Assembly (NCBI GenBank): GCA_049322955.1
Contig: JBMOPU010000012.1
Coordinates: forward strand, 617,517 to 681,516
Length of the DNA stretch: 64,000 bases
Direction of reading: 5' to 3'
Source of the DNA: Patescibacteria group bacterium
GTDB taxonomy: Bacteria; Patescibacteriota; Microgenomatia; UBA10105; UBA927
The position numbers were made by a program, and so were the translations under genes. Position 1 is the stretch's first letter. Each line of letters begins with the position of its first letter. The notes below the pieces were generated by a model. It did not search any database. It had not been told where the DNA came from and was given only the letters and a program-made list of their open reading frames with translations. Shown here piece by piece: positions 2,790 through 41,190 of this stretch.

Positions 2790-3469
2790 GCAAGATCAGG
2801 TCGGCGTTTTTTTGTTTTGAGGGTTGCCTGTTCTTTTTGCCAGGCGACGATTGCGGCATGATTGCCGGAGAGCAAAACGGGCGGCACCGCACGGTTTTTG
2901 TACACTTCCGGGCGGGTATATTGCGGATACTCAAGCAGGTTATCTTCAAAGGATTCATGGACGGTGGCGTCGGTCTTTTTGAGTACGCCGGGAAGCAACC
3001 TGGTAATGCTGTCGACAAGTACCATGGCGGGTATTTCACCGCCCGTGAGCACGTAATCCCCGATGGAAATTTCCATATCGACAAGGTCCCGTACCCGTTC
3101 ATCAACCCCTTCATAGTGGCCGCAGAGGATCACAAGATGTGAGACGGTGTCCGCAAGTTCACGTGCCAGTTTCTGGTGATACGGAACTCCCTGCGGATCC
3201 ATAAGCACAATTTTTCGCTTATCAGGAGTTGCCGTCGAACGATCGAGGACAGCCGACAGGGCGCGGTCGATGACATCCACTTTAAGGACCATTCCCGCAC
3301 CGCCGCCGTAGGGATGGTCATCAACCGTTTTATAGGCATCGGTCGCATAGTCGCGAAGATGAACATATTCAACGATAAGCTTTTCTTGGGAAACGGCTCT
3401 TTTCAGTATTGAGGCGGTAAGCGGTCCGGAAAACATTTCCGGAAACAACGTGATGATCGAGATTTTCAT
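2786..3469 (-). CDS. trmD: tRNA (guanine37-N1)-methyltransferase TrmD
   Basis: MKISIITLFPEMF... and PYGGGAGMVLK motifs of the SPOUT TrmD family. Confidence 0.9.
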   Translation of the reverse strand: MKISIITLFPEMFSGPLTASILKRAVSQEKLIVEYVHLRDYATDAYKTVDDHPYGGGAGMVLKVDVIDRALSAVLDRSTATPDKRKIVLMDPQGVPYHQKLARELADTVSHLVILCGHYEGVDERVRDLVDMEISIGDYVLTGGEIPAMVLVDSITRLLPGVLKKTDATVHESFEDNLLEYPQYTRPEVYKNRAVPPVLLSGNHAAIVAWQKEQATLKTKKRRPDLA

Positions 3470-7377: not shown

Positions 7378-7488
7378 TTATTGCAATCCGCCGGCAAGGA
7401 GCGGCACAAAAGAAGTCGCGATAAGGGCAATCGTCGAGATGATAACGATGACTTTCCACACTTTTTCGTGTTTTCTGAAAAAATTCAT
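7378..7488 (-). CDS. putative 36-aa hydrophobic small protein (MNFFRKHEKVWKVIVIISTIALIATSFVPLLAGGLQ)
   Basis: ATG one nt after the tyrS stop, a single predicted TM helix, stop at 7378; too short for the ORF track. Confidence 0.2.
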   Translation of the reverse strand: MNFFRKHEKVWKVIVIISTIALIATSFVPLLAGGLQ

Positions 7489-7489
7489 A

Positions 7490-8677
7490 TTAGGGATCAA
7501 TTTTAACAGCTTTTCTGCCTACTTCAATAACGTCATTAACGGAAAGGGTTACCGGATCTTTGGTGAGTACTACTGGTTGACCGTTATGCCTGACCGCTTT
7601 TTGCTCGATAAGCCGTTTGGCATCAGATTTACTTGCCGCCATGCCGAATGAGACCAACACATCGACCATGGTTGCATCCGTCTTTACGTTATTTTTGGAC
7701 ATATGCGGAATATCGGATGCCGCTACATCCCCTTTCTGGAATCGGAGTTCAAAATTCGCCTTGGCGTCCGATGCGTCTTTTTCCGAATGCAATTCCGTGA
7801 CCAGACGGACCGCAAGTTCTTTTTTGAGTAACATCGGATTTTCTCCGTCGGCAAGCTTTTTTTCCGCTGAAGCGACTTCCTCCATCGTTGCATCGGTTGC
7901 CAGCGTGAGATATTGGATGATGAGTTCATCCCGCAGTGACATAACCTTGCCGAACATCTCGTCGGCACTATCGGTCAGCCAAATGGCGTTTCCCCAGCTC
8001 TTGCTCATTTTTCTGCCGTCGGTGCCCTCGAGAAAACCGTTGGCGATAATAAATGATTCCTTATGTCGTAAATCCTTCTGTAACACTCTCCCCGCCTGCA
8101 TGTTAAAGGTTTGGTCGGTGCCTCCCAGCTGAATATCGGTGTCCATATAGTAACTGTCGTACCCCTGCATAACCGGGTAGAGCAATTCATGCAGGCCTAC
8201 TTTTTTACCTTCCGTTAATCGTTTTTTGATGAGCTCCCTTCCAACGAAATCCCCTGCCGAAAAATGCTGGGTGAGTTTGACGATATCGGTAAATGACAGC
8301 TTCTTAAGCCATTGGCTGTTATGCACGACGGTAATCTTGGAGAAATCCAAGACCTTTTCCGCCTGCTTTTTATAGGTTTCGAAGTTTTTTTGGATTTGTT
8401 CGGTCGTGAGCACGGGCCGTTCGGTATCTTTGTCCGACGTGTCTCCGATAAGTGCGGTGAAGTCACCGATAAGAAACGTCACATGGTGGCCGAGTTTGGC
8501 GAACGCATTGAGCTTTCGTAGCGGTACCGCGTGACCGATATGGATATTGGTTGCGGTAGGATCAATGCCCAAAAAAATATTGAGTTTTTTCCCGCTTTCC
8601 AAAAGCTCCCGCAACTTCTCCTTGCCGGGAATGATGTTTTCGACGCCTCTCGTCAATAATTCTTCGATACTGTCCAT
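7490..8677 (-). CDS. tyrS: tyrosine--tRNA ligase
   Basis: HIGH (HIGHAVP) and KMSKS class-I motifs; C-terminal S4-like domain. Confidence 0.9.
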   Translation of the reverse strand: MDSIEELLTRGVENIIPGKEKLRELLESGKKLNIFLGIDPTATNIHIGHAVPLRKLNAFAKLGHHVTFLIGDFTALIGDTSDKDTERPVLTTEQIQKNFETYKKQAEKVLDFSKITVVHNSQWLKKLSFTDIVKLTQHFSAGDFVGRELIKKRLTEGKKVGLHELLYPVMQGYDSYYMDTDIQLGGTDQTFNMQAGRVLQKDLRHKESFIIANGFLEGTDGRKMSKSWGNAIWLTDSADEMFGKVMSLRDELIIQYLTLATDATMEEVASAEKKLADGENPMLLKKELAVRLVTELHSEKDASDAKANFELRFQKGDVAASDIPHMSKNNVKTDATMVDVLVSFGMAASKSDAKRLIEQKAVRHNGQPVVLTKDPVTLSVNDVIEVGRKAVKIDP

Positions 8678-8709
8678 ATATACCTCCTTTATCTATAACA
8701 CAGCCTATC

Positions 8710-9837
8710 CTATTGTTCCAGAGCCTGTTTCAGGTCGGCAATAATATCATCGGGATGTTCAAGTCCCAGCGATAAACGGAATAACTGTTCACTTGGCGGA
8801 GACAATGCTGGAGTTTTTTCCCAGTTCATCATGCGCGCGGGATGTTGTATTACCGTTTCAACCCCGCCGAACGAATGACTGATGCAAATAAGTTTGAGCT
8901 TCTTGGCAAATGCCGAGGGGTCCCGATCGTTTGTCAAGAGAAAGCTTACCAATGTTCCTTTCCCCCTCATTTGTTCCCGCACAATTTGTTGTTCTTCTCT
9001 CCCTGCGGAGCCCGGCACCATGACGTGACAAATAGCGGGATGATGGCGAAGCCATTTGCTTACCACGGTTGCGGTTTGTTGTTGTGCCCGTATTCGTGCG
9101 GTGAGTGTTTTCATGCCACGTAAGACAAGAAAACATTGTTGGGGATCCAGCACCGGCCCCGTTGTCTGTGTCAGAAACCGTAACCGTTTTCCGATTGCAT
9201 CGTTATTCGTGCCAATAAAGCCTCCGATGACGTCACTATGGCCGTTCAGAAGTTTGGTAAGACTTTCTACGACGATGTCGGCTCCATGCGAAAGCGGCTG
9301 TTGAATACCGCCGGAACACATAGTGGTATCGACAACCAATATTGCGCCGTTTCGGTGTGCAATGCGGGCCAGTGTTGCAATGGGGAGTACCCGAAGTGAC
9401 GGGTTAGTCGGTGTTTCAGCCCAAAGCAATTTCGGTTTCAGTTCTTCTACTTCATGCTCAAGCGATCGTTCATCGGTAAAATCCGTACATACAGCAGTGA
9501 CCCGGAAAGGAGTCAGCACGTCATGAAATATTCTTCCGGTTCCTTCATAGAGCTCATGATGATGCAGGAGCGTATCCCCTGCACCAAGCAGTAAGCTCAC
9601 CATGAAAATTGCCGATGAACCCGATGCGGTGGCAATCCCCCACGAGGCATTATGAAGCCGCATGAGCACCGACTCAAGTGCGGTTCTTGTATCATTTGCG
9701 ATACGTCCGTACTGGTTTCCCTTTGTCGACGATAATTCATCGAGCGCATATATCACTGAAGGGTGTATGGCCGTAACGATTTCTCCCGTATGCGGACACG
9801 GTGCATGTGGTCGTACCAATAGCGTTTGCTGTTTCAT
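8710..9837 (-). CDS. Cys/Met-metabolism PLP-dependent enzyme (cystathionine gamma-synthase / beta-lyase family)
   Basis: SLTKLLNGHSDVIGG PLP-lysine motif of the trans-sulfuration enzyme family; 375 aa. Confidence 0.8.
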   Translation of the reverse strand: MKQQTLLVRPHAPCPHTGEIVTAIHPSVIYALDELSSTKGNQYGRIANDTRTALESVLMRLHNASWGIATASGSSAIFMVSLLLGAGDTLLHHHELYEGTGRIFHDVLTPFRVTAVCTDFTDERSLEHEVEELKPKLLWAETPTNPSLRVLPIATLARIAHRNGAILVVDTTMCSGGIQQPLSHGADIVVESLTKLLNGHSDVIGGFIGTNNDAIGKRLRFLTQTTGPVLDPQQCFLVLRGMKTLTARIRAQQQTATVVSKWLRHHPAICHVMVPGSAGREEQQIVREQMRGKGTLVSFLLTNDRDPSAFAKKLKLICISHSFGGVETVIQHPARMMNWEKTPALSPPSEQLFRLSLGLEHPDDIIADLKQALEQ

Positions 9838-10769
9838 GCGTCACCTCCTTTTTTTGTTAAGACGATGTTGTGTCGCATGCACAGTAACGGCGGCGTATGG
9901 CTATCGTTTCCAAACCGACTTTTTATGTCACTGACAAAAAAGCCTAACCGTTGCCAAAGGCTCATATGATTACCAAGTGTCCGGAACCATTCGCCGTGAC
10001 CGTTGGGATCTTCACCGAACACGACAAATCCCCCCGGGCGTTCTATCTCGATAAGCTTTCCGCGCATACTGGTCAAGTCCTCACCGAATTCGGCAGTCAG
10101 CTGTCGTAAATCGTAGATATTTTTCCGCAAAGCATCGGTGAGCGTCGGGTGATTTCGCGCGCCGTTTGAAAGGTTCACCGACTCGCGGTGTTCCGATAGC
10201 GGTAAGAGTTCGCTTGTCGTGATATTGACGATTGATGTACCGCCCGGTTTAAGAATACGTGCCGTTTCACCGTCTATGGCTCTATCTATTTCGGGAGGAC
10301 AGCAATTGCCCGTATGGTCCCTGATAACCAGATCAATCGAATGATCGGCAATGCCGGTATGACGCGCATCGATAAGATGCGGTAACACGGCAGTAAGTGA
10401 TTTCTCCTTTTTGAGCGCACTGACCTTGCCGATTATTTCCTCGTCGATATCCACAACATGCAACGACGCAAGTTCCGTTCCGAGCGCATGGGCGATGAAT
10501 CGCTGTGTATCCTCAACTCCGTCGATGCTTGCAAGGCCCAACATGGCAACCGATACCGGAGTGCGCCCGATCCGATGCGCGAGCTTTGCAATTCCCGGCA
10601 TTTCCGACAGTAATTGCAAGTTGAGCCCGACGGGCGGGGTTCGGTTGAGCAGTTCATCCGTTATCCCCTCCTGCTCCATGCGAGCGCGGGTTGCTTCGTA
10701 TCCGCTGGTTCCCCGTAGCCCCCGTCCGAACTCGCGGCCTAATGACCGTGATATTTCTTTATCACTCAT
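9834..10769 (-). CDS. putative class I SAM-dependent methyltransferase
   Basis: Start chosen at ATG 10767-10769, 5 nt after a GGAGAGGAGG SD; Rossmann-like LGLASIDG...VVDIDEE; ATGA overlap with the downstream PLP gene. The longer ORF (to 11054) reads through a terminator and is rejected. Confidence 0.5.
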   Translation of the reverse strand: MSDKEISRSLGREFGRGLRGTSGYEATRARMEQEGITDELLNRTPPVGLNLQLLSEMPGIAKLAHRIGRTPVSVAMLGLASIDGVEDTQRFIAHALGTELASLHVVDIDEEIIGKVSALKKEKSLTAVLPHLIDARHTGIADHSIDLVIRDHTGNCCPPEIDRAIDGETARILKPGGTSIVNITTSELLPLSEHRESVNLSNGARNHPTLTDALRKNIYDLRQLTAEFGEDLTSMRGKLIEIERPGGFVVFGEDPNGHGEWFRTLGNHMSLWQRLGFFVSDIKSRFGNDSHTPPLLCMRHNIVLTKKGGDA

Positions 10770-10803
10770 ACATACCTCCTCTCCGTGCGAAACATAAAAA
10801 CAC

Positions 10804-10875
10804 GGGTGCTGAGGAAAGGGTTCGAACCTTTCTTCCACAACGGGTTCTCCCGTTTGTGAATCCACCATACTCAGC
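10804..10875 (-). ncRNA. non-canonical tRNA-like / tmRNA tRNA-like-domain-like structured element
   Basis: Perfect T-arm (AAAGG-TTCGAAC-CCTTT), 6/7-bp acceptor stem (GCTGAGT/CCTCAGC), GGATTC D-loop-like segment, but no 7-nt anticodon loop (AACGGG-AGAA-CCCGTT instead); 5' part resembles the tmRNA 5' end (GCUGA..UGG..GGAUUC..ACGGG). Confidence 0.25.
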
Positions 10876-10984
10876 GCGAGCCACAAAAAAAACGCCCATG
10901 CAAGCCTCCGATTCATATCGGAAACCTGCAAGGGCGTTCTGGTGCACGCGGTACCACCTTGCTTTACGAAGGAATTGTAGCCAT

Positions 10985-11010
10985 AAAAAAATCCCGCGGG
11001 GCGGGATTCT
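10985..11010 (-). terminator. intrinsic terminator (hairpin AATCCCGC-CCC-GCGGGATT followed by a T7 run on the minus strand)
   Basis: Perfect 8-bp GC-rich stem plus U-run read on the minus strand; nothing coding upstream of it on that strand for ~250 nt. Confidence 0.6.
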
Positions 11011-11244
11011 ACCTTCGCCTCATCTGATTGCTCCGCGAAATGCGACACAATCATTCTGCTGTTACGGGCGTACCCGGAGAAATTTACTGATGTTCAACTT
11101 CTCGGCTCCAGAGGGTATTTCGATCCCTAGAAATTCGGCAGGTCTTTCATCAACCGCCTGCTTTCTTGTGTCACTTTCCAGGTATCTACTTCGTTCTCTT
11201 TCGATGCCGTTCCTATTAACTTGTGCTACTTACCATATCATAAT

Positions 11245-11273
11245 TTGTCATTTTCGTCAATCAAAGTTACAAT
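11245..11273 (+). promoter_or_regulatory. sigma70-like promoter (TTGTCA-N17-TACAAT) upstream of the PBP1A gene
   Basis: Near-consensus -35/-10 hexamers with a 17-nt spacer read directly from the sequence. Confidence 0.45.
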
Positions 11274-11279
11274 CATTGG

Positions 11280-13868
11280 GTGATCCAAATGTCCGAATTA
11301 TTCAGCGAGCGGCAACGAAGAAGACTTTTCGGCAGTCGCATCTCCCGGATGAAATTGTGGAGTATCGTCATCTACGGCGCGTTTATTCTTTTTGTCGTCG
11401 GTATTTTGAGTGTCGGATTGCTTTTTGCCTGGTACGCCAAAGACCTTCCCCGCCCCGACAAAGTCCAACGCAACGACGGATTGTCCACGGTGGTGCTCGA
11501 CAGAAACGGCGAAAAACTCTATGACATTTTTGAAGAAGCAAACAGAATTCCCGCCAAATGGGATGAGATTCCCCAATATCTTAAAGATGCGACGATCGCG
11601 GTTGAGGACAAGGATTTTTACAAGCATCAGGGACTTTCGATGACGGGTATCATGCGCGGTATGCTGGCATGCGTGGTTTTACGACGGTGTCAGGGAGGAT
11701 CCACCCTTACCCAACAGCTCGTCAAAAACGTCCTGCTTTCCCAGGAACGGACGCTTCCGCGTAAGATGAAGGAAGCAGTATTAAGCATTCAGATTGAACG
11801 AAAATACAGCAAGAACGATATTCTTCTGATGTATCTCAATGAAGCTCCCTACGGAGGTACCGCAGTGGGGGTAAAGACAGCCGCCGTGCACTACTTCAAT
11901 AAGGACGTGAAAGACTTGTCCCTTATTCAATCGGCGATATTGGCGGGTCTGCCCCAGTCCCCGAGTTACTATTCTCCATTTACGGGTGAAGAAGGCGCAT
12001 TTAAGGATCGCACGGTTCATGTGTTACGGCGCATGCGTGAAGAGGGATATATTACTCCCGCGCAGGAGGGTGAAGCGAAAAAACAAATGGAAACCATTCA
12101 ATTTGCGGCAGGGGACGCGGCGCTCCGGGCACCGCATTTTGTCGCCTACGTAAAGCAACTCCTCATCGACCGGTTCGGCGAGAAGCGGATTAACGCCGGA
12201 GGCCTTACGGTTACCACGACCCTTGATTGGAAATTGCAGGAGGCCTCCCAGCTGGCGGTCAAAGAGGAAGTCGAAAAAGCCAAGAAACTCAAGGTCAGTA
12301 ATGGAGCCGCTCTCGTGACCGATCCCAAGACAGGAGAAATTCTTGCCATGGTGGGAAGTAAAGATTACGCGGCCACCGACAGTTCGGGGTTGAAATTTAA
12401 CGTGGTTACCCAAGGGCTTCGACAGCCGGGAAGTACGTTGAAGCCGATTATTTATGCGGCCGCACTTACCAAGGGCTATACGGCAAGCACAATGCTCATG
12501 GATGTCGAAACCAAGTACCCTTCCGGTGATGCCTCAAAACCCGACTATAACCCCAAAAATTATGACAATAAATACCGCGGACCGATGCAGATGCGATATG
12601 CACTGGCAAATTCCATCAATACCATTGCCGTCAAATTCGCGGCAATCGTCGGTGTCAAAGATGTCTTAAAAATGGGCTATGCCATGGGACTTACCACCTG
12701 GGAACCGACGGATGCCAACTTGAAGCGGGTGGGGCTTTCTCTGCCTTTGGGAGGGGCCGAGGTGAAAATGACCGATATGGCAACGGCGTTTGGCACGTTC
12801 GCGCATGAGGGACAGCGGGTTGATCTGGTCGCTATTTTAAAAGTCGTTGATGCGAAGGGCAAAACACTCTATGAGCATACGGAGGTTGCCCCCCGACAGG
12901 AAATTGAACCCGATGTCGCGTATGTCATTTCCCATATTCTTTCCGATAACGATGCACGGAAGGAAATATTCGGACTACGATCGTATCTGGTCGTACCCGG
13001 AAAAACCGTGGCGGCAAAAACGGGTACCACCGATGACAAACGGGATAATTGGACGGTAGGTTATACGAAAAGTCGCGTGGTAGTCACATGGGTGGGAAAC
13101 AATGACAATTCCCCGATGAGTCCCACGCTTGCTTCCGGCGTGACGGGAGCCGCTCCTATCTGGAATCGCATCATGAAGGAAGCGCTCAAGGATATCCCCG
13201 ATGAATCCTTTACGCGTCCTGACGGGGTCGTGGAAATGGATATCGATGCGTTTGGCGGCGGGTTACCGTTTGAAGGGCAACCGACGAGAAAGGAAGTCTT
13301 TATCCGCGGCACCGAACCCAACGGTCCCGCGTCCATATATCAGAAACTCAAAGTTTCCCGAAAGGACAGCAACAAGCTCGCAAACAACGTTGAGGTAGCA
13401 ACCGGAGATTACGATGAAAAACTCTTTATCGTGCTCCGTGAGGACGATCCGGTTTCCGGTGACGGGAAGAACCGATGGCAGGAAGGGATCAATGCATGGA
13501 TCAACGGACAGGACAGCAAATATAAGGCGCCTACCGAAACGTATAGCGGCGGCGGATCCGATCAGGTGGTCATCCAACTCAAAAAGCCGTCTGATAAAGA
13601 GCGTATCAACAATAATAACGTCACGATCGAAGCGGAAGCGATTTCTACGGCGGACATTGAGCGGATAGAAATATTTGTTGACGGATCAAAGGTGAAAGAG
13701 CGTACCAACGAAAAAACGATCGCCGAAACGGTCAACATAAGTAACGGTTCCCATAGCATCAAAGTCAAGGCGACCGATAAACGGGGAACCTCAAGCGAGC
13801 GGGAAATTCATGTGGGAATAAATGAGGACTACAAAGAGCCGACCCCCGCCCCTACGCCGACGCCGTAA
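11280..13868 (+). CDS. ponA: class A penicillin-binding protein 1A (transglycosylase + transpeptidase) with C-terminal Big-like/PT-repeat extension
   Basis: GT51 motifs (EDKDFYKHQG, RQPGSTLKP), transpeptidase SxxK/KTG (KTGTTDD) motifs, N-terminal TM helix; ends in PTPAPTPTP. True start may be an internal ATG (11289 or 11349). Confidence 0.85.
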   Translation: MIQMSELFSERQRRRLFGSRISRMKLWSIVIYGAFILFVVGILSVGLLFAWYAKDLPRPDKVQRNDGLSTVVLDRNGEKLYDIFEEANRIPAKWDEIPQYLKDATIAVEDKDFYKHQGLSMTGIMRGMLACVVLRRCQGGSTLTQQLVKNVLLSQERTLPRKMKEAVLSIQIERKYSKNDILLMYLNEAPYGGTAVGVKTAAVHYFNKDVKDLSLIQSAILAGLPQSPSYYSPFTGEEGAFKDRTVHVLRRMREEGYITPAQEGEAKKQMETIQFAAGDAALRAPHFVAYVKQLLIDRFGEKRINAGGLTVTTTLDWKLQEASQLAVKEEVEKAKKLKVSNGAALVTDPKTGEILAMVGSKDYAATDSSGLKFNVVTQGLRQPGSTLKPIIYAAALTKGYTASTMLMDVETKYPSGDASKPDYNPKNYDNKYRGPMQMRYALANSINTIAVKFAAIVGVKDVLKMGYAMGLTTWEPTDANLKRVGLSLPLGGAEVKMTDMATAFGTFAHEGQRVDLVAILKVVDAKGKTLYEHTEVAPRQEIEPDVAYVISHILSDNDARKEIFGLRSYLVVPGKTVAAKTGTTDDKRDNWTVGYTKSRVVVTWVGNNDNSPMSPTLASGVTGAAPIWNRIMKEALKDIPDESFTRPDGVVEMDIDAFGGGLPFEGQPTRKEVFIRGTEPNGPASIYQKLKVSRKDSNKLANNVEVATGDYDEKLFIVLREDDPVSGDGKNRWQEGINAWINGQDSKYKAPTETYSGGGSDQVVIQLKKPSDKERINNNNVTIEAEAISTADIERIEIFVDGSKVKERTNEKTIAETVNISNGSHSIKVKATDKRGTSSEREIHVGINEDYKEPTPAPTPTP

Positions 13869-25108: not shown

Positions 25109-25309
25109 CGCCGATTTTCCCGGCGCCTCCTCTGTTAATAAATAATAAATAACCGATAGTTTAGGGTGTAAAAATCACATATCCCTATCTATCAGTCTTT
25201 TCTATCGTAAAATTCTAGGCAGAAGAAATTTATTGAGGCTTATAGTGTAACATACCATACGTAACCTGACAAGAGAGGCGTATCTTTTGGCGAAGAATGC
25301 TTGCGAGGG

Positions 25310-25383
25310 TGGGCGCACAGGGGCTCGAACCCCGGACCTTTGCAATGTGAATGCAACGCTCTAGCCAGCTGAGCTATGCGCCC
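25310..25383 (-). tRNA. tRNA-Val (anticodon CAC), no encoded CCA
   Basis: Manual cloverleaf: acceptor GGGCGCA/TGCGCCC, anticodon loop TTCACAT, T-loop TTCGAGC. Confidence 0.8.
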
Positions 25384-25390
25384 GTGTTTT

Positions 25391-25430
25391 CTGGGACAAA
25401 ACCTGCGGTTTTTTCCCAACGATTTTCCCT
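25391..25430 (-). promoter_or_regulatory. conserved tRNA 5'-leader hairpin motif, copy 1 (upstream of tRNA-Val)
   Basis: Plus-strand CTGGGACAAAACC-TGC-GGTTTTTTCCC-AACGATTTTCCC; shared with copies at 31450 and 33588. Confidence 0.5.
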
Positions 25431-25636
25431 TCAGTGGAGTCGCGAAAGCAGAGGTTCCTCTGCAGAAAACTTCGCGAAGCGTCTTTGTTACTGAAAGAAA
25501 ACATTGTCATTATATATGGAAGCAACGGATTTGGAAAGAATTGTAACGAAAGGGAAAAAGAGCGGTGGCGGTGTTTATCCGGCTATGCCGGATGCCACAT
25601 CGAGAAAAAACCCGCAGGTTTTGTCTCGAGATGCGC

Positions 25637-26239
25637 TTAGCCTGCTGAGGTGGCAAGCGACCGTTCATTAGAGAGGCCAAAGGTGGTACCGTGTTTCTTG
25701 TACATACCCCAGTACCCCATTTTCTTTTTGCGGGTAGCAAATGACGCAAGCCAGGTGCGGCTATCCTCAACCTGTTCACGAAGCACTTTGATGAACGTGC
25801 GAAGTTGTTCGTAGAAGTTCAAATGATACACGCCGGGATTGACCACTTCCTGACTGACTGCGGTCGCGACTTCATTATGGAGGTTTTTGAGCGATACGAT
25901 AAGCGCTTTCAGTTCGGCACGAATTGCATCAAGCTGGCGCTTTGTTTCCGCTTCGATTACATCCGAATTCGGTTTGGGCTGAGGATGTGCTTCCACCCGA
26001 ACGGGTTGCACCGCAACCTGTTTTTCCGGTTTCGTATCACCGAATTCAATGGTTTGATTCGGCCGTAGTTCTCCCGATGCGGGCATCCCCCCGATAAGCG
26101 AAGCGACGATATCACCCCCGATTTTCGAAAATTCGGAAACTGTACTTTTCCCCACGCTTGAAGGTACGGAGCCCAAAGCTTCGAGGACATTATCGTTCTT
26201 ATAATGGTTCTGCTTTTTCTTGGAGGCTAGCTGTGCCAT
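25637..26239 (-). CDS. hypothetical protein
   Basis: 200 aa, no recognisable motif; lies upstream of the trigger-factor-like gene. Confidence 0.4.
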   Translation of the reverse strand: MAQLASKKKQNHYKNDNVLEALGSVPSSVGKSTVSEFSKIGGDIVASLIGGMPASGELRPNQTIEFGDTKPEKQVAVQPVRVEAHPQPKPNSDVIEAETKRQLDAIRAELKALIVSLKNLHNEVATAVSQEVVNPGVYHLNFYEQLRTFIKVLREQVEDSRTWLASFATRKKKMGYWGMYKKHGTTFGLSNERSLATSAG

Positions 26240-26282
26240 AGCGCCTGCATTATACCCTCACGGGCAGTGCAATTGCAAACGA

Positions 26283-27149
26283 TTACGCCATGAGGCCGTC
26301 GAGGGTTTTTTGCCTTCGGATGAGTGACGTTAGGTAATACCGTTGCCCTTCAAGCGCCGTGCGCTCTTCGGGTGATTTGGCGGTCGAAAGGAGCTTATCC
26401 ACTTCCGCTTCGCTCACGGTAACCTTTTCCTGCTCGGCAATCGCTTCAAGACCGAACTCAAGGGTCAGGTTCTTGGCCGCCTGGGCACGAAAATCAGCCC
26501 GAATCGAGTCTGCCGTCTTTCCTGTTGAGGAGAGATACTGTTCCACGGAAAGCCCGAGTTTTTTGGTTTGATCGACGAGTTGTGAAAGCTGATGGGTAAC
26601 TTCATGCTCAAGCAAAATTCCGGGAAGCTTCGCCTCGATTGCGGTAAGCAATGCATCAAGTACTTCGTCCACGGAAGGCCCTTTCGGTTGCGTATCTTCT
26701 TTCCCCGGAACCAGTATTTTGCTCCCGCCTTTGGCCGCTTTGACATCGGCCACTGCTTTTTTGTAGTCCTTCAGTGTCACGACGGGTCGTTCACAGGTTT
26801 TGGCAAGAACGATCCAATCTTTCCCTTCTTCTGCACTTTTCAGTTCAATCTGCGGCATCATGATGGGCGCGACTTTTTGTTCCATCACGGCGTCGGTATA
26901 GGCTTTCGGCACTAACCGCTTGATTGTTTCTTCGTAGGTTTTGGTCTTGTCGATATTTTCCTCAATGATTTGCTTGGGAGCTTTTCCTTTGCGGAAACCT
27001 GCTATTTCGGTGTTACTTGCCGTCTCGGTAACGACGGTCTGATACATGTCCTGGATGTCGCTCCAGGGAATGGTGATGGTAAGTTCAATTGTGCCGTCTT
27101 CGGTTCGGTTGATGGTGCTTTTCATAATTGCCAAGTGTAACACAGGCAT
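26283..27149 (-). CDS. tig: trigger factor, domain-reduced (N-terminal ribosome-binding + C-terminal domain, no PPIase domain)
   Basis: GFRKGKAP trigger-factor signature in the N-domain; total length only 288 aa; an alternative start is 27125. Confidence 0.6.
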   Translation of the reverse strand: MPVLHLAIMKSTINRTEDGTIELTITIPWSDIQDMYQTVVTETASNTEIAGFRKGKAPKQIIEENIDKTKTYEETIKRLVPKAYTDAVMEQKVAPIMMPQIELKSAEEGKDWIVLAKTCERPVVTLKDYKKAVADVKAAKGGSKILVPGKEDTQPKGPSVDEVLDALLTAIEAKLPGILLEHEVTHQLSQLVDQTKKLGLSVEQYLSSTGKTADSIRADFRAQAAKNLTLEFGLEAIAEQEKVTVSEAEVDKLLSTAKSPEERTALEGQRYYLTSLIRRQKTLDGLMA

Positions 27150-27173
27150 GCCTGAGCGTAAAGGGATCGCTCA

Positions 27174-27641
27174 TCAATTGGAAAGATTGAGCTCGAGATC
27201 CAAGATGGGAGGAGCAAGGGTACTGTCCTGTAACGAAAACGAGTTGAGTGTTGCCGAAAATGAGGCAATCTCTTCCTTAAATGCCATAAACGCGGTGGTT
27301 GTCGCAATCCGGGAGACATTGGGAGGAGGGGTCGGTGTCGGTATATGTGTGGGCGTGACGGCAACGGGAGGAGCGGACGTCGTCGGCGCGGCACTTCGTG
27401 CATACAATAAGCCGAAAACCACAATTCCAACAAACAGGATCGCACCGACGACAATATAAAGAACATTCCCCTTTTTTGCTTTGGGAGGAGCAGTCGGCGG
27501 GGTGGTGAGTGATGAAAGTGACGGTTGAACCGTAGGGGTCTGTTCGGGTGCTTGTTGTTGAGGAACAGGCGACGGGGTGGCCTGTGGTGCGGTTGCTGTC
27601 GGTTCATTCACTGTCGGTGATGGTGATTGTTGTTCGTCCAT
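27174..27641 (-). CDS. Pro/Thr-rich single-pass membrane protein (hypothetical)
   Basis: PT-rich low-complexity N-terminus, one TM helix (LYIVVGAILFVGIVVFGLL). Confidence 0.4.
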   Translation of the reverse strand: MDEQQSPSPTVNEPTATAPQATPSPVPQQQAPEQTPTVQPSLSSLTTPPTAPPKAKKGNVLYIVVGAILFVGIVVFGLLYARSAAPTTSAPPVAVTPTHIPTPTPPPNVSRIATTTAFMAFKEEIASFSATLNSFSLQDSTLAPPILDLELNLSN

Positions 27642-27643
27642 AG

Positions 27644-28441
27644 TTATTCGTAGGTTAATGCGGTTTCCAATTCCTTAAGATACGATCCCGCTTCCACAAG
27701 ATCTTGTCGTGCGGTATTGACGGTTCCCTGTAATTGCTGGAATATGCGCTCCTGTTGTTGCACGTCTCCGGTAATTTTGGGAATCGTCGCCCGAATCGTA
27801 TTGGCTTTTTGCTGATACAAGCTGTATTTATTGGAAAGAGCCAACAGCCAACGATCCAAAATAGCCTGCTTTTGGGGTGAAGCGTCCGTTTTGCTCGCAT
27901 TGATAAGCACCTGCGAGTGGGTCGCGACATCATTAAACTCTTTGGCGAAGTAGTTAAGATACCCAAGTTGCAGTGCCGCGATAATCTGCCGATAGGCCGA
28001 CTGCATGGTTTCGTAGTTGGTAACAAATTTTTCCGATACGTCTTCGGCGTCATCAAGTGAAGCGATCGAAGGGGCTAAAATAAGATGTTGATCCAAATAC
28101 GCGATTTGGTTGGTGAGGATCGCCCGATACGTTTGTTTTTCGCTGGCGATCATTCCGGGGTTTTCCGTGATTTTCTCATTAAGAAACAGGAAATAGGTTT
28201 TCGCGACATTCCCCCGCTGGGCGATATACAATTTCACTTTTTCCAGTACATCCTGTTGCGATGCCAACGATTTGAATTGCTTGTATTGATTTAACGCAAT
28301 CTGGTAATCGGATAACCGTTGGCGATACACGCTGAACTGATATTGGTAATCCTGATATGCCTGTTGACTCGTGGCAAAAGCGGGCCGTGGCACGATAAGG
28401 AAGCTCACCGCCAGCAAAAATAGATACGCAATTCTTCTCAC
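27644..28441 (-). CDS. secreted alpha-helical hypothetical protein
   Basis: Signal peptide MRRIAYLFLLAVSFLIVPRPAFA; Q/Y-rich helical repeats. Confidence 0.45.
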   Translation of the reverse strand: MRRIAYLFLLAVSFLIVPRPAFATSQQAYQDYQYQFSVYRQRLSDYQIALNQYKQFKSLASQQDVLEKVKLYIAQRGNVAKTYFLFLNEKITENPGMIASEKQTYRAILTNQIAYLDQHLILAPSIASLDDAEDVSEKFVTNYETMQSAYRQIIAALQLGYLNYFAKEFNDVATHSQVLINASKTDASPQKQAILDRWLLALSNKYSLYQQKANTIRATIPKITGDVQQQERIFQQLQGTVNTARQDLVEAGSYLKELETALTYE

Positions 28442-28488
28442 CGAATTATCGTACCATGCAAAAAAATGAGAATCAACGCGAAATATTT

Positions 28489-28797
28489 TTACTTCCTCTT
28501 GGTGTGGTGATGTTCGGGTAATCGGGTAGCGATACCGCAGGTGAGGCTAAACAGACGGAGTTTCGTACGACCGTCCGCAAGGCAAAAGTTGCAGGCTTTT
28601 TTCATCGTATCCGTTACTTTTGTGCCTTCCGCGCCTATGGCATCCCATTGCTTCCCCAAATCGGTGAGCATCGTTCGTATGAGCTGGCGGTTTCCCTCTC
28701 CCGCCTCTGCGTCTTCGGCCTGATGGCAGGCTAAGCACTGACCGTCGATGGCCCGAGCGGCCGCTTCTAATTTGTCGTCCGAAAGAATTTCATTCAT
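28489..28797 (-). CDS. small CxxC...CxxC putative metal-binding protein (contains CLACH)
   Basis: Two Cys pairs (CLAC, CNFC); no signal peptide. Confidence 0.35.
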   Translation of the reverse strand: MNEILSDDKLEAAARAIDGQCLACHQAEDAEAGEGNRQLIRTMLTDLGKQWDAIGAEGTKVTDTMKKACNFCLADGRTKLRLFSLTCGIATRLPEHHHTKRK

Positions 28798-28952
28798 GGG
28801 TTATGCGAGCTTTTTTTACCGTACGTTATGTCGTGAAGAAGCATTGAATACTTGTAACCGCGACACCCTGCAAAGTGTGATGCGTTTTGTGCTCCCGAGA
28901 GAAACGATCCCCTAAGGGGTACCACATCCCGCTCAGCGGGATACGTTGAGTG

Positions 28953-29034
28953 TGCCGCTGAGAGGACTTGAACCTCTAAGCCTTACGGCACAGGTTCCTA
29001 AAACCTGCGTGTCTACCAGTTTCACCACAGCGGC
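28953..29034 (-). tRNA. tRNA-Leu (anticodon TAG), long variable arm, no encoded CCA
   Basis: Manual fold: acceptor GCCGCTG/CAGCGGC, anticodon loop TTTAGGA, T-loop TTCAAGT; near-identical to tRNA-Leu(GAG) at 41370. Confidence 0.8.
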
Positions 29035-29056
29035 GTATGCTCGATTATACCCTGCT

Positions 29057-29662
29057 TTAGATGGTGACTTCCAGATGTTCGACACCCACGGGATCAAAGT
29101 TTTCGATCTTCGTAAGGAAATAACGCACCTTTATACTCCACGTCGGTGACGCGGCATAGATGCTCCCCATTTTCTCAATGGTATCCGCTCCACGATCAAT
29201 ATACCGATACTTCAAACCCTCGGAAACCGTGGTAATCCCGTCTTTCCAGCTGTCAAAATGTATACCGTCATTTTGTCCGGTGAATACTCCCCAACCCCAT
29301 CCGTTATAGGAATTGCGCGGAATATGTTTGCCGAAGGTAGATTCTACCCCTGCAATGGCGGCGACAAGTTTCCAATCAAGCCCAAGTCTGTCTGCCTCCG
29401 CGATAAAATGCCCCGCATCATCCGCCATGGGTGAATTATGCAGAGTAAGGTATGCCTTCAGTTTGGTGACACGGGCATCGGCAACCGTTTCAGGTATGGG
29501 AAGATGCGCGGAAGCTTCCGCCATGGGAAGAGCCTGCGCAAAAGCGGGCTTTGTAATACACCCAAAAAGGACAAACGACAATGCTATAGTTATGGCTTTT
29601 TTCATAGTCTTACCTCGCATTGATCCCGATACATTCGGGACAAAGGTGAAGTAAGAGAACAT
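29057..29662 (-). CDS. secreted lytic transglycosylase / muramidase-like protein (paralog A)
   Basis: Signal peptide; AIAGVESTFG (ES catalytic-Glu-like motif); paralogous to 29979..30575. Confidence 0.45.
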   Translation of the reverse strand: MFSYFTFVPNVSGSMRGKTMKKAITIALSFVLFGCITKPAFAQALPMAEASAHLPIPETVADARVTKLKAYLTLHNSPMADDAGHFIAEADRLGLDWKLVAAIAGVESTFGKHIPRNSYNGWGWGVFTGQNDGIHFDSWKDGITTVSEGLKYRYIDRGADTIEKMGSIYAASPTWSIKVRYFLTKIENFDPVGVEHLEVTI

Positions 29663-29978
29663 CTTGCCTCATATGTGGGTGAGGCATCGGGGAAGACTGA
29701 GGAATGAGTCGTTAACGGGTACTCAAGCGGGCAGTTTATTTAGCCTCAATTTGAGGCGGCTTGAGTATCCATTAATAACCCTAAAGCAAGCTATGGTTTA
29801 GGTAGCAAACCTTAGGATCTAAGGATGTACTATACCCTATAATAGTTATCTTGTCAAGTCTATGGGCTATTCAGACAAAATGATCTACCCTATTATATAG
29901 GCGCGTTAGTACTTTTTTGTATGTATTATGGGTTAATTATTTGGAGATAAAAAATAAGAAAAGACGAAGCGCGAATAC

Positions 29979-30575
29979 TTACTGAATTTCCGTCATGAAG
30001 TGATCGACGCAATTTGCCCAGGAGTTTCCGTTGGCAACGGAAGGGGGTGCGTATATAGCACCGATATCAACAAGTTCAGTGATGCCTCTGGCAAAATATT
30101 TTTCTTTGAGATATCTCGACACCCAATCAATCGCGTACAGCCAGTTGGGAAATTTTGCGCCGCTAATTTCTCCCGTCTCGACGCTTATTCCCCATGCATT
30201 ATGCGAGTCTTTGCTCGGCATGCGTTTGCCCACATTGCTCTCGCACATGGCGATAGCAGGGACAAGCCGGTAATCAATGCCGTAATGTTCAGCCCTATCG
30301 ACGATGTATTCGGCATACTCCGCAATCGGTGACTCATGTTCTTCTAAAAATTTCGTAAGCAGAAGTGCCCGGGCATCACCCGCAAGTACACTCGCACCCA
30401 ATACCTGTTCGGTACCGTAGGAAGATGCGGCAATGCGCATCGGGGGAACGATCGGCGTCACGACTTCCCCTGCATTTGCTTTATTGGTCAGGGTAATAAG
30501 CAGTGATAAATTGACGGCAAGAAGGCTCAAGGTGAGGGGAAACCACACCAGCGCAATCAGTGCTTTTTTAAGCAT
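29979..30575 (-). CDS. secreted lytic transglycosylase / muramidase-like protein (paralog B)
   Basis: Signal peptide; AIAMCESNVG motif; same architecture as paralog A. Confidence 0.45.
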   Translation of the reverse strand: MLKKALIALVWFPLTLSLLAVNLSLLITLTNKANAGEVVTPIVPPMRIAASSYGTEQVLGASVLAGDARALLLTKFLEEHESPIAEYAEYIVDRAEHYGIDYRLVPAIAMCESNVGKRMPSKDSHNAWGISVETGEISGAKFPNWLYAIDWVSRYLKEKYFARGITELVDIGAIYAPPSVANGNSWANCVDHFMTEIQ

Positions 30576-30632
30576 ATAAACATACTGACATGACCCGATA
30601 GTTCTGTCAACTTGACATGCGGGATTAGCGCG

Positions 30633-31367
30633 TTAAATACGGAAGAATGTTCCCACAACGTATGCTACAAGAGCCGATATTCCGCCGACGAGAAGCGTTT
30701 CGCTGATTGTCTGGAAAGGTTTTCGCTGGGTAACGCCCGCACGGAGTGCGCCGAGGAGTAGCAATGCTGAGGCGGTTGCGATAACGGAATAAAGAAAAAC
30801 ATTCGATCCCATATGTATCATGTATGGCACAAGCGGTATAGTACCGAAGCAGATAAAGGCCAAAAACGTCGCAACGGCCACGACGATCGGCTTTTCACCT
30901 TCCGGATTCGTCATTTCGAGCTCGTCCTTCATCATAAACTCCGTCCAATAGGAAGGATTCGTGCGATAAATACTCGCCAGCGTTGTGGCGTCCTTTTCAC
31001 TAAATCCCTTGTTATGAAGAATCGTAATCGTTTCGGCAAACTCTCCCTCGGGTTCATGGAGGATTTCATGATGTTCTTTGGCTTTTTCGTTGCGATAGAC
31101 TTCCTGATCTGCTCGAAGCGAGAGGAAACTACCCAATCCCATGGATAAGCCGTCGGCAAACAAATTGGCTAATCCGAATAATAAAACGGTTATCACGGGA
31201 ACAGAGGAGGTGACAGGATCCTGTTGTGCACCGGCAAATCCGGCGACGACGGCAAATGTGGTGACGATCCCGTCATTGCCGCCATAGACGATCTCCCGAA
31301 GGTATTGGGAAAACGCCGTGCGTTTGTGTTCCGTCGCAAGGTGTTTCGCCAAATCAAATTTTTTCAT
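30633..31367 (-). CDS. VIT1/CCC1-family Fe/Mn transporter
   Basis: YGGNDGIVTTFAVVAGFAGA N-terminal motif, central cytoplasmic loop, five TM helices. Confidence 0.7.
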   Translation of the reverse strand: MKKFDLAKHLATEHKRTAFSQYLREIVYGGNDGIVTTFAVVAGFAGAQQDPVTSSVPVITVLLFGLANLFADGLSMGLGSFLSLRADQEVYRNEKAKEHHEILHEPEGEFAETITILHNKGFSEKDATTLASIYRTNPSYWTEFMMKDELEMTNPEGEKPIVVAVATFLAFICFGTIPLVPYMIHMGSNVFLYSVIATASALLLLGALRAGVTQRKPFQTISETLLVGGISALVAYVVGTFFRI

Positions 31368-31371
31368 CGTG

Positions 31372-31443
31372 TGAGCGCAGAAGGATTCGAACCTTCAACC
31401 GACAACTTAAGAGGTTGCTGCTCTACCGTTGAGCTATGCGCCC
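31372..31443 (-). tRNA. tRNA-Lys (anticodon CTT), no encoded CCA
   Basis: Manual fold: acceptor GGGCGCA/TGCGCTC, anticodon loop CTCTTAA, T-loop TTCGAAT. Confidence 0.8.
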
Positions 31444-31449
31444 TATTCA

Positions 31450-31487
31450 TGGGGCAAAACCGAGGTTTTTCCCCAACGCTTTTCCTT
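31450..31487 (-). promoter_or_regulatory. conserved tRNA 5'-leader hairpin motif, copy 2 (upstream of tRNA-Lys); a TATAAT box and second hairpin lie further upstream (to ~31550)
   Basis: Plus-strand TGGGGCAAAACC-GA-GGTTTTTCCCC-AACGCTTTTCC; followed by the GTTGCAACGG...CCGTTGCAAC hairpin and, on the minus strand, GGCGTATAAT. Confidence 0.5.
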
Positions 31488-31584
31488 CAAGGTGTTGCAA
31501 CGGGTTCAGATCGAGAGCCACACCGTTGCAACAAATTATACGCCAATTCCTTCGTTGTAATCTCCACTTTCTTATTCACTGCGG

Positions 31585-31656
31585 CGCCCTTGGAGGGAAT
31601 CGAACCCCCATCACCTGTTCCGAAGACAGGCACTTTATCCATTAAGCTACAAGGGC
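31585..31656 (-). tRNA. tRNA-Arg (anticodon TCG), no encoded CCA
   Basis: Manual fold: acceptor GCCCTTG/CAAGGGC, anticodon loop CTTCGGA. Confidence 0.8.
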
Positions 31657-31659
31657 AAC

Positions 31660-31738
31660 TGGGGTGGCTGAGCGGATTCGAACCGCCGACATTCTGCTCC
31701 ACAGGCAGACGCTCTAACCGGGCTGAGCTACAGCCACC
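31660..31738 (-). tRNA. tRNA-His (anticodon GTG) with encoded G-1 and encoded 3' CCA
   Basis: G(-1)GTGGCTG acceptor, anticodon loop CTGTGGA, 3' end CAGCCAC-C-CCA; 3 nt from tRNA-Arg. Confidence 0.8.
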
Positions 31739-31800
31739 AATGACAATATTGTACCTTATTCAGGCGTGATTTGCATGGAGATATACGTGCGCGAAAGGAG

Positions 31801-33510: not shown

Positions 33511-33511
33511 G

Positions 33512-33583
33512 TACCCCCAGAAGGAATCGAACCTTCATCGGATCATTAGAAGTGATCTGCTCTATCCATTGAGCTATGGGGGC
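33512..33583 (-). tRNA. tRNA-Arg (anticodon TCT), no encoded CCA
   Basis: Manual fold: acceptor GCCCCCA/TGGGGGT, anticodon loop CTTCTAA, T-loop TTCGATT. Confidence 0.8.
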
Positions 33584-33587
33584 GTTC

Positions 33588-33627
33588 TGGGGCAAAACCT
33601 AGCGGTTTTTCCCCAACGATTTTCCCT
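33588..33627 (-). promoter_or_regulatory. conserved tRNA 5'-leader hairpin motif, copy 3 (upstream of tRNA-Arg TCT), followed by the GTTGCAAGC...GCTTGCAAC hairpin
   Basis: Plus-strand TGGGGCAAAACC-TAGC-GGTTTTTCCCC-AACGATTTTCCC. Confidence 0.5.
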
Positions 33628-33771
33628 ATTGTGTTGCAAGCTATTCACTCGCATACGCACGCTTGCAACGGATTTTGCCCATTTGATAACGGTTACTTGG
33701 CTTATCCAACGGGCTTTCCGGCAAGTATACGTATTATAAAGGTTTTTGCTACAGGTGAGAAGCGAATGGAA

Positions 33772-35508: not shown

Positions 35509-35513
35509 TAATT

Positions 35514-35587
35514 TGGAGCGGATGAAGGGAATCGAACCCTCGTCACCAGTTTGGAAAACTGGCGCTCTACCATTGAGCTACACCCGC
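35514..35587 (-). tRNA. tRNA-Gly (anticodon TCC) with encoded CCA
   Basis: Manual fold: acceptor GCGGGTG/CATCCGC, anticodon loop TTTCCAA, 3' T-CCA. Confidence 0.8.
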
Positions 35588-35696
35588 TTCTTGGACGGGA
35601 AACGACGTTTCCCTTCCGACTATTGTACCCGGTTATCCTGCTGGCGATATATCATATCGCCGGATAATCTCACGTCATATTATATCGTGTTTTGCG

Positions 35697-36137: not shown

Positions 36138-36141
36138 AACG

Positions 36142-37050: not shown

Positions 37051-37091
37051 GGGATTATTGTAGCGGATTTTGATAAAATAGGAATAGTTAT

Positions 37092-37167
37092 CGGGGTGTG
37101 GCTCAATTGGTAGAGTGCGCGCTTTGGGAGCGTGAGGTTCCGAGTTCGAGTCTCGGCACCCCGACCA
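37092..37167 (+). tRNA. tRNA-Pro (anticodon TGG) with encoded CCA
   Basis: Manual fold: acceptor CGGGGTG/CACCCCG, anticodon loop TTTGGGA, T-loop TTCGAGT, 3' A-CCA. Confidence 0.8.
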
Positions 37168-37177
37168 ATGGACGATT

Positions 37178-37292: not shown

Positions 37293-37302
37293 AGTGTCAC
37301 GT

Positions 37303-37755: not shown

Positions 37756-37761
37756 CGCCGA

Positions 37762-40029: not shown

Positions 40030-40036
40030 TGGTAAG

Positions 40037-40123: not shown

Positions 40124-40136
40124 GATCTTCCTATTA

Positions 40137-41153: not shown

Positions 41154-41190
41154 TGCAGGCTATTTCTATGGTATAATTTTTGCTGTTGCC

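Follow-up and report, generated by a model that had tools for sequence, protein, structure and literature searches.

A tRNA-Tyr-specific T-box leader with an embedded tRNA-derived element ahead of a methyltransferase–PLP enzyme–tyrS operon in a Patescibacteria group bacterium

The leader and its T-box riboswitch

The window analysed here is a stretch of 64,000 nucleotides from a Patescibacteria group bacterium (assembly GCA_049322955.1, contig JBMOPU010000012.1, positions 617,517 to 681,516), and the subject of this account is a leader of ∼460 nt that precedes a three-gene operon in it. The first gene of the operon encodes an orphan class-I S-adenosylmethionine (SAM) methyltransferase-like protein, the second a pyridoxal 5'-phosphate (PLP) enzyme of cysteine/methionine metabolism that belongs to the cystathionine gamma-lyase/synthase family, and the third, tyrS, the tyrosyl-tRNA synthetase (TyrRS). 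This third gene was overlooked in an earlier note made from the letters of the sequence alone, and it is the key to the identity of the leader. The leader harbours a T-box riboswitch of tyrosine specificity and, in the slot between the terminator of the T-box and the Shine-Dalgarno sequence of the methyltransferase gene, a 72-nt tRNA-like element that derives from a tRNA-Tyr gene (Table 1). Coordinates refer to the minus strand of the window unless stated otherwise; loci in the genomes of relatives are designated L0xx and public protein records P00xx.

The T-box is recognized by a full-length match to the Rfam model RF00230 (model positions 1–219 of 219, 90.6 bits, E 4.2e-20). All the sequence and structure features that define this class were found in the window copy save the curated score threshold: the match falls 2.4 bits short of the Rfam gathering score of 93, a point that counts against the assignment. 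The deficit stems from two insertions of 28 and 34 nt. Orthologous leaders score between 79 and 101 bits on the same model and four of them exceed the threshold (L003 98.9, L009 94.7, L015 101.2, L027 93.9). The specifier loop of Stem I, GAAAUACC, presents the tyrosine codon UAC. The heptamer GAAAUAC occurs in every T-box leader of the operon, including that of the distant locus L015, and is conserved even where the methyltransferase is only 43% identical; GGUGGUACCGCG is conserved along with it across all orthologous leaders. As tyrS is part of the operon, the riboswitch is taken to be specific for tyrosine.

Table 1. Features of the leader and of the operon that it precedes
Feature	Position	Strand	Basis
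Leader, ∼460 nt, preceding the methyltransferase–PLP–tyrS operon	10770-11230	-	
Promoter-like site of the leader: TTGACG, 17 nt, TG-extended TATGGT; overlaps the divergent PBP1A promoter	11232..11260	-	
T-box: Stem I, Stem II/IIA-B, Stem III region, antiterminator	10927..11213	-	Rfam RF00230
Specifier codon UAC (Tyr) in the Stem I specifier loop	11115..11117	-	placed by Rfam consensus alignment
Terminator-like hairpin and U7 in the Stem III region	10985..11010	-	fold, Rfam alignment, orthologue conservation
T-box sequence; UGGU bulge at 10953-10956	10947..10960	-	sequence, Rfam alignment, conservation
T-box intrinsic terminator, long hairpin and U8	10885..10938	-	fold
tRNA-Tyr-derived tRNA-like element	10804..10875	-	fold, covariance model, positional homology, L033 comparison
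Element: acceptor 5' strand	10870-10875	-	fold
Element: linker, 9 nt	10861-10869	-	fold
Element: 11-bp hairpin	10834-10860	-	fold
Element: T arm, 6-bp stem, loop UUCGAAC	10814-10832	-	fold
Element: acceptor 3' strand	10808-10813	-	fold
Element: A73-CCC end	10804-10807	-	fold
Trailer blocks CCGUG / CACGG, possible 5-6 bp hairpin after the discriminator and before the Shine-Dalgarno sequence	10783..10805	-	tentative
Shine-Dalgarno GGAGG (10775-10779) and true start ATG (10767-10769)	10767..10779	-	sequence, conservation
Regulated operon	7490..10769	-	Pfam and NCBIfam matches, synteny in relatives
Orphan class-I SAM methyltransferase-like gene, operon gene 1	9834-10769	-	profile matches
Cys/Met-metabolism PLP enzyme gene, operon gene 2	8710-9837	-	Pfam/NCBIfam
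tyrS, tyrosyl-tRNA synthetase, operon gene 3	7490-8677	-	TIGR00234, E 7e-98

Further downstream, the conserved T-box sequence AAGGUGGUACCGCG forms a UGGU bulge that is predicted to base-pair with the tRNA at its ACCA end, and the last U of this bulge complements discriminator A73 of the tRNA-Tyr found in the clade. The 86-nt stretch 10880-10965, which holds the intrinsic terminator, folds with −42.7 kcal/mol (z −6.2, 0 of 200 shuffles as good). The segment ACGCCCUU is used twice, as the 3' strand in the antiterminator and as the 5' strand in the terminator, and hence the two helices are mutually exclusive. These observations establish the upstream module of the leader as a transcription-attenuating T-box specific for tRNA-Tyr, with tRNA-dependent read-through as the predicted outcome: in this Gottesmanbacteria-like member of the Candidate Phyla Radiation (CPR), the riboswitch would control read-through into the methyltransferase–PLP–tyrS operon. 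Among the alternatives offered earlier was a T-box or riboswitch-like attenuator serving a Met/Cys-type operon. The first half of that suggestion is borne out by the RF00230 match over the upstream 350 nt; the second half gives way to tyrosine, in view of tyrS and the UAC specifier.

The promoter-like site of the leader has an extended −10 element that is kept in L003 (TTGACA-17-TACAGT) and L004 (TTGACG-17-TATAGT), and its columns are invariant in the alignment. This site and the plus-strand promoter of the gene for the penicillin-binding protein PBP1A (TTGTCA-17-TACAAT) lie back to back and overlap within ∼60 nt (11216-11273); the whole promoter block is near-invariant in the relatives.

A further hairpin is located upstream of the antiterminator. 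It consists of 10 bp, AGAAUCCCGC-CCC-GCGGGAUUUU, has an energy of −17.7 kcal/mol and runs straight into a U7 tract. The earlier note had described it as a strong, orphan intrinsic terminator: the hairpin and the U-tract are indeed present, but the structure is not an orphan, because the T-box encloses it: the Rfam alignment places it in an insertion of the Stem III helix. The terminator of the T-box itself, much the stronger of the two, had been missed. A hairpin followed by a tract of U5 to U8 occupies the same position in all orthologous leaders, with stems that differ from one another (CCCGC/GCGGG, CCGACC/GGUCGG, CUCCC/GGGAG, CCCCGC/GCGGGG), indicating that the feature is maintained by covariation. 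It is thus a conserved internal part of the T-box.

The function of this internal hairpin can be envisaged in two ways. It could be a true terminator that either yields a small RNA of ∼240 nt containing Stems I and II or acts as a second, independent attenuation checkpoint, as its canonical GC-rich stem, the U7 immediately 3' of it and the covarying stems with a retained U-tract in the orthologues would suggest. A simple terminator scan of the window did not flag it, and the same scan flagged the orthologous hairpins of L003 and L004 as terminator-like. Against a true terminator stands the intact and conserved antiterminator/terminator switch downstream, which would be pointless if termination at 10985 were efficient. 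Moreover, the hairpin is enclosed by the outer helix (Rfam Stem III), in which a compensatory change distinguishes the window from L003, and pausing close to Stem III has reportedly been described for the glyQS T-box of Bacillus subtilis. A true terminator is therefore regarded as unlikely; the hairpin probably causes a programmed pause or partial termination before the antiterminator decision is made.

The tRNA-like element and its descent

The element downstream of the terminator had been described from the letters alone as 72 nt with a T arm, six of seven acceptor pairs, a D-like segment and no anticodon arm, and all of these are present. A 6-bp acceptor stem and a 6-bp T stem combine into a 12-bp minihelix; the linker UAUGGUGGA and a long hairpin fill the middle, and there is neither a D stem nor an anticodon arm. 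The fold has an energy of −27.1 kcal/mol (z −2.7, 2 of 200 shuffles as good). An acceptor stem, a T arm with a loop of the form UUCRANY and the discriminator A73 characterize the element as tRNA-like, and the absence of a cloverleaf with D and anticodon arms, together with its escape from tRNA models, sets it apart from a functional tRNA-Tyr. ARAGORN called neither a tRNA nor a tmRNA on it. The Rfam scan recommended earlier for the leader matched the T-box and no tmRNA, SAM riboswitch or tRNA: only the T-box and chance microRNA-like matches on the terminator hairpin were returned, both at E <= 10 for 10400-11700 and at E <= 1e-3 for the whole window.

The favoured explanation at the outset was a tmRNA tRNA-like domain (TLD) lacking its mRNA-like domain, or a decayed ssrA. 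The layout does recall a TLD, since an acceptor stem and a T arm are combined with an unpaired D-like segment in place of an anticodon arm. However, no tmRNA match was obtained with ARAGORN, a check that the earlier note had itself proposed, or with Rfam even at the permissive threshold; the element has U3-A70 where the alanine-identity pair G3.U70 would be expected; it measures only 72 nt; and the orthologous slot in relatives is occupied by tRNA-Tyr(GUA), not by ssrA. The likeness to the TLD layout is real but convergent, and a tmRNA origin can practically be dismissed. What held up was the alternative of a tRNA-derived sequence: the slot contains an intact tRNA-Tyr gene in sister lineages.

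Across the relatives, four states of the slot are found. An intact 88-nt type-II tRNA-Tyr(GUA), called as tRNA-Tyr by ARAGORN and scoring 53–57 bits with Rfam, is present in L003, L004 (identical to L005/L006/L010), L009 and L025 (identical to L026/L031). In L008 and L024 the same tRNA body carries an anticodon loop, CGGUUAG or CGAUGAG, with G33 and a non-Tyr anticodon, and scores 42 and 38 bits, respectively. The window-type element of 72–73 nt is shared by the window, L001/L002, L023 and L033-L036. Finally, the slot is empty in L027/L028, L029, L011/L030 and more distant genomes. Neighbour-joining of the methyltransferase sequences groups the window type as sister to the clade that holds intact and G33 tRNAs; L004, whose copy is intact, branches deeper. 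A metagenome scan with the conserved 3' half, GGTTCGAANCCNNNCCTNAGCACCCGTG, retrieved only two contigs, both of known types.

The descent of the element from a leader-embedded tRNA-Tyr(GUA) gene is well supported by comparison with these sequences. The six full-length copies, four intact and two with G33, form a cloverleaf that is 97.9% paired and in which six pairs have changed on both sides. A covariance model built from them recovers the full length of the window element (25.5 bits, E 7e-5 over 64 kb) and ranks it above one genuine tRNA of the window. In the model alignment 35 positions, corresponding to the D and anticodon arms, are deleted, and the variable arm is matched by the long hairpin of the element. 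The 5' strand GCUGAGU, including the U7.C66 mismatch that leaves six of seven acceptor pairs, is identical to that of the intact tRNA of L009. Shared with the intact tRNAs are also GUGGA of the D loop, the T-loop, the 3' acceptor strand, A73-CCC and the trailer CCGUG...CACGG-GGAGG, and the position of the element matches that of the full-length copies in L003, L004, L008, L009, L024 and L025. Comparison with these copies places the loss of the D stem and of the anticodon arm in the window lineage, and without them the element is unable to decode.

The leader tRNA, and the element that replaced it, appear to be transcribed only upon T-box read-through, as no promoter of their own was detected: a scan of L003 and L004 for promoter-like sites between terminator and tRNA, limited to a consensus search, found none, and a separate promoter was rejected on this ground. 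In L009 the tRNA starts 12 nt past the U-tract. The window contains 11 tRNA genes (25308-41452), none of them for tRNA-Tyr. A 3' CCA is encoded in three of these (His, Gly, Pro) and missing from the other eight, which means that the organism must mature 3' ends and add CCA, a point that makes processing of the leader element plausible. The tRNA-Val gene of the window is followed by CCC, as is the leader element.

Several tRNA-bearing leaders contain a conserved spacer of ∼44 nt, CCCCTCAAARCAACTGGGGCAACARCATAGTGATWAGMAAATATT, between a partial copy of the 5' start of the tRNA (GCTGAGKTAGC) and the tRNA itself. It occurs in L003 (3815-3871), L008 (∼3290-3374), L024 (∼575-630) and L025 (∼1318-1374) and not in the window; L008 has an extra tandem copy, and L009 lacks the spacer despite 97% methyltransferase identity to L025. 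The arrangement resembles that left by an insertion that duplicated an 11-bp target. The trailer blocks CCGUG and CACGG flank variable loops and are themselves conserved in every tRNA-bearing leader; in L004 a U-A pair has changed to U.G. The hairpin that they might form was considered as a 5' stabiliser and rejected in that capacity, as the blocks are conserved but the energies are not significant; it is kept as a tentative part only.

The region between the methyltransferase start and the PBP1A promoter had been judged devoid of credible coding sequence, and comparison agrees that no conserved coding sequence lies there. An open frame does extend from 11054 to 9834 in the window, and the public records P0001, P0003 and P0067, annotated as 406 amino acids, would imply that the leader encodes an N-terminal extension of the methyltransferase. 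Such an extension, of the kind annotated at 354–406 amino acids, is next to impossible on comparative data and was rejected: the open stretch upstream of MSDKEIS ranges from 3 to 108 codons among relatives and is not conserved; a 1-nt length polymorphism (U8/U7) in close variants shifts its frame; the stretch is taken up by the T-box terminator and the tRNA-derived element; and the Shine-Dalgarno sequence and the N-terminus M(S/N)DKEIS are conserved in all methyltransferase homologues. Records that begin inside the T-box leader are P0001, P0003, P0067 and P0072 (406 amino acids), P0065, P0068 and P0070 (370) and P0066 (354). What these records carry as N-terminal extension is riboswitch and tRNA-like sequence in translation, and public annotations that extend the methyltransferase to 354–406 amino acids are wrong.

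Structural selection on the element

The most informative comparison for the window type is with L033, whose methyltransferase has diverged from that of the window by 10% at the nucleotide level and by 26% at four-fold sites. The two elements differ by 11 substitutions and one insertion. A single substitution falls within the 42 positions of the acceptor stem, GGUGGA, T arm and ACCC, at a variable position of the T-loop, whereas the 30 positions of linker and hairpin have accumulated ten substitutions and the insertion (Fisher p = 4e-4). The hairpin of L033 has nevertheless been re-paired in a shifted register with an energy of −14.1 kcal/mol. Simulated mutants carrying an equal load average −4.5 +/− 2.8 kcal/mol, and only 0.4% of them are as stable. 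That the hairpin stays stable with ten of the 11 substitutions located in linker and hairpin points to selection on structure.

The G33 copies offer a second comparison. Outside the anticodon stem-loop, the tRNA bodies of L008 and L024 differ at 0 of 71 positions, while 54% of four-fold sites differ between the corresponding methyltransferase genes. Three differences lie within the anticodon stem-loop, and the spacers, accessory hairpins and trailer loops have diverged as well. In addition, the T stem of the element differs from that of intact tRNAs by two double compensatory changes (GGAGG/CCUCC to AAAGG/CCUUU). Considered together, these patterns show that the minihelix, the T-loop, the GG-containing D-loop remnant, A73-CC and the presence of a stable hairpin have been under structural selection.

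Several observations weigh against this conclusion. The case for the window type relies on one diverged variant, L033, and two variants with single substitutions, and one of these two substitutions, U36C in L036, breaks a pair of the hairpin. If a second tRNA-Tyr gene served as donor, gene conversion could give the bodies of L008 and L024 the appearance of purifying selection. No tRNA or tRNA-like element is found in the slot of L027/L028, L029 and L011/L030, which indicates that the module is dispensable for expression of the operon. Finally, the identity between the window (8700-10000, 10800-11300 and 13400-13700) and L001 is a mosaic: a sliding-window profile has blocks of 97–100% next to blocks of 70–80%, and the former cover the leader and the whole PLP gene. 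Such a pattern suggests either recent recombination between lineages or a chimeric metagenome-assembled genome. The two elements are identical at 72 of 72 positions, at a four-fold divergence of 46% in the methyltransferase; on account of the mosaic, this identity was dropped as evidence of selection.

From the same facts a neutral account can be constructed, in which the element is a functionless tRNA-Tyr pseudogene left by an internal deletion and still resembles a tRNA for want of time to decay. Decoding has been lost at least three times in the clade (by deletion in L027/L029, through G33 in L008/L024 and in the window type), which marks the leader copy as expendable; the near-identity of the window and L001 leaders is due only to their mosaic; and a single diverged window-type variant is at hand. 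A decaying relic, on the other hand, should not have spared the minihelix from substitution as observed against L033, nor kept a fast-evolving hairpin stable to a degree that so few simulated mutants match. It would also not account for identical bodies in L008 and L024 beside drifting anticodon loops, and an 11-bp helix, not scrambled sequence, occupies the middle of the window element. The neutral account is given a low probability. An att-site remnant, another of the initial suggestions, finds no better footing: the element is not an att scar, nor is it freely decaying, with both minihelix and hairpin maintained. The identity of the parts of the leader, the origin of the element and the structural selection on it are, as a joint proposition that excludes any specific processing role, considered likely to be correct.

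Proposed role, operon context and related systems

A read-through transcript that carries the tRNA or the element would require resolution by the tRNA-processing machinery. RNase P, RNase Z and the CCA-adding enzyme recognize the stack of acceptor and T arm, the T-loop, a D-like GG and A73-C74-C75. The non-decoding versions in the clade have kept exactly these recognition features, which favours a role as punctuation: the element may be a tRNA-shaped signal for RNase P and RNase Z that separates the T-box leader from the mRNA, a proposal to which somewhat less than an even chance is assigned. RNase P would cut at the 5' end of the element (10875) and the tRNA 3' endonuclease after A73 (10807). 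Both cuts together would release the tRNA-bound T-box leader and create a new 5' end of the mRNA ∼25 nt before the Shine-Dalgarno sequence, where the CCGUG and CACGG blocks may form a hairpin. The substrate features, namely the stack of 6 + 6 bp, the T-loop and ACCC, are present in the window and conserved with respect to L033, and cleavage itself is a prediction. Two points tell against the proposal: cleavage at the element is purely inferred, and the fold of the trailer hairpin is weak and not significant, with alternative folds available.

A tRNA mimic that acts in trans or binds an enzyme is a more doubtful option. After processing and CCA addition, the element would become a non-decoding RNA, perhaps bound or even tyrosylated by TyrRS; it could equally be pictured as a translational operator near the Shine-Dalgarno sequence, as a T-box decoy or as an RNA carrier that serves the methyltransferase and PLP enzymes, and each of these versions has a slim prospect. 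The element does retain G1-C72, A73, CC, a canonical T-loop and the GG of the linker, its long hairpin occupies the place of the variable arm of bacterial tRNA-Tyr in the covariance-model alignment, its distance to the Shine-Dalgarno sequence is 25 nt and its operon encodes TyrRS, and non-decoding versions are conserved in two separate lineages. Yet it has no anticodon with which to pair with the specifier codon, tyrS follows 2 kb downstream as the third gene, the methyltransferase–PLP pair is found in at least 10 genomes without an adjacent tRNA, and some lineages have deleted the element altogether. A broader conjecture, held to be improbable, is that the T-box controls the gene of its own ligand and that the embedded tRNA has turned into a dedicated non-decoding RNA with a function of its own in several lineages. 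If this were true, a released, CCA-tailed and possibly tyrosylated RNA would feed back on the T-box and TyrRS, or would serve the methyltransferase and PLP enzyme as carrier or cofactor.

The operon itself has a restricted distribution. Homologues of the methyltransferase are rare and belong to Microgenomates (Candidatus Gottesmanbacteria, Beckwithbacteria, Roizmanbacteria and records labelled 'Patescibacteria group'). Among relatives the order pheT, PBP1A (opposite strand), leader, methyltransferase, PLP enzyme, tyrS and recG is conserved. An NCBIfam search assigned the methyltransferase to no family, and its best PDB match, at E 1e-3, is uninformative on function; DHxGNCCPP and GHGEWFR are invariant motifs of the protein. 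In a comparison of the window and loci L011-L022, a cystathionine-lyase-like PLP gene is located 3' of the methyltransferase gene at all 12 loci checked by tblastn (of 16 genome loci). The adjacency of tyrS to this pair is limited to some of them. At distant methyltransferase–PLP loci without tyrS (L013, L014, L017, L019 and L021), one or two terminator-like hairpins with U-tracts precede the methyltransferase start by ∼60 to 470 nt, and no Rfam T-box match at gathering score was obtained in these upstream regions; a divergent T-box or another attenuator may operate there. An open reading frame of 36 amino acids is called right after tyrS in L001, L002 and L003, with conserved synteny (window 7380-7490 region; L001 7567-7677); it gave no Pfam match.

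T-box riboswitches control genes for aminoacyl-tRNA synthetases, biosynthesis and transporters. The window leader resembles a known member of RF00230 such as that of B. subtilis tyrS in its Stem I UAC codon, UGGU bulge, antiterminator/terminator switch and control of a synthetase gene. It differs in its host, a CPR/Patescibacteria organism; in the terminator-like hairpin with a U-tract inside the Stem III region; in the tRNA gene or tRNA-like element placed before the first open reading frame; and in the position of tyrS, third behind methyltransferase and PLP genes. A literature search found no description of a T-box that precedes the gene of its cognate tRNA, nor of T-boxes in CPR/Patescibacteria, which is absence of evidence only; to our knowledge, neither has been described. 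The leader reportedly studied for B. subtilis thrS is alike in concept, as a general endonuclease is said to cut it upstream of the terminator and thereby stabilize the downstream mRNA, so that the fate of the mRNA is influenced by a cut made in the leader once read-through has occurred. The signal proposed for the window is, in contrast, a tRNA-shaped module downstream of the terminator.

Transcripts shared by tRNA and mRNA are known from the thrU-tyrU-glyT-thrT-tufB operon of Escherichia coli and from mitochondria, where tRNAs act as punctuation. There too a tRNA lies upstream of an open reading frame in one unit and must be separated from it by RNase P and 3' processing. The tRNA of the window clade, however, is preceded by a riboswitch that senses the same tRNA, and the window copy is a tRNA no longer. 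A non-decoding tRNA-like structure recognized by RNase P and RNase Z within a long transcript is also familiar from mascRNA/MALAT1. That system is eukaryotic and sets the 3' end of a long noncoding RNA, whereas the window element is bacterial, lies in a 5' untranslated region, stems from a bona fide tRNA-Tyr and has only predicted processing. The tmRNA TLD shares the acceptor stem, the T arm and the lack of a D stem and anticodon arm; the element is non-homologous to it, tRNA-Tyr-derived and devoid of the alanine identity pair and of an mRNA-like domain. In the thrS operator of E. coli, the synthetase is said to bind a tRNA-like leader that mimics the anticodon arm. Common to both cases are a tRNA mimic near the ribosome-binding site and an operon that encodes the cognate synthetase; the window element differs in mimicking the acceptor/T-arm half, without an anticodon arm.

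The clade thus provides a natural series that comprises an intact tRNA-Tyr, a dead anticodon loop, a remodelled 72-nt element and a clean deletion, and it illustrates how a tRNA gene becomes a structural RNA module in which the acceptor/T-arm half is still selected. In the window, an unusual arrangement that places a riboswitch before the gene of its ligand has reached its most derived state, and the window constitutes a testable bacterial case of tRNA-shaped mRNA punctuation in a 5' untranslated region. The arrangement raises the question of how riboswitch and ligand gene cooperate in a feedback loop, and it ties an uncharacterised methyltransferase–PLP gene pair to the sensing of tyrosine and tRNA-Tyr.

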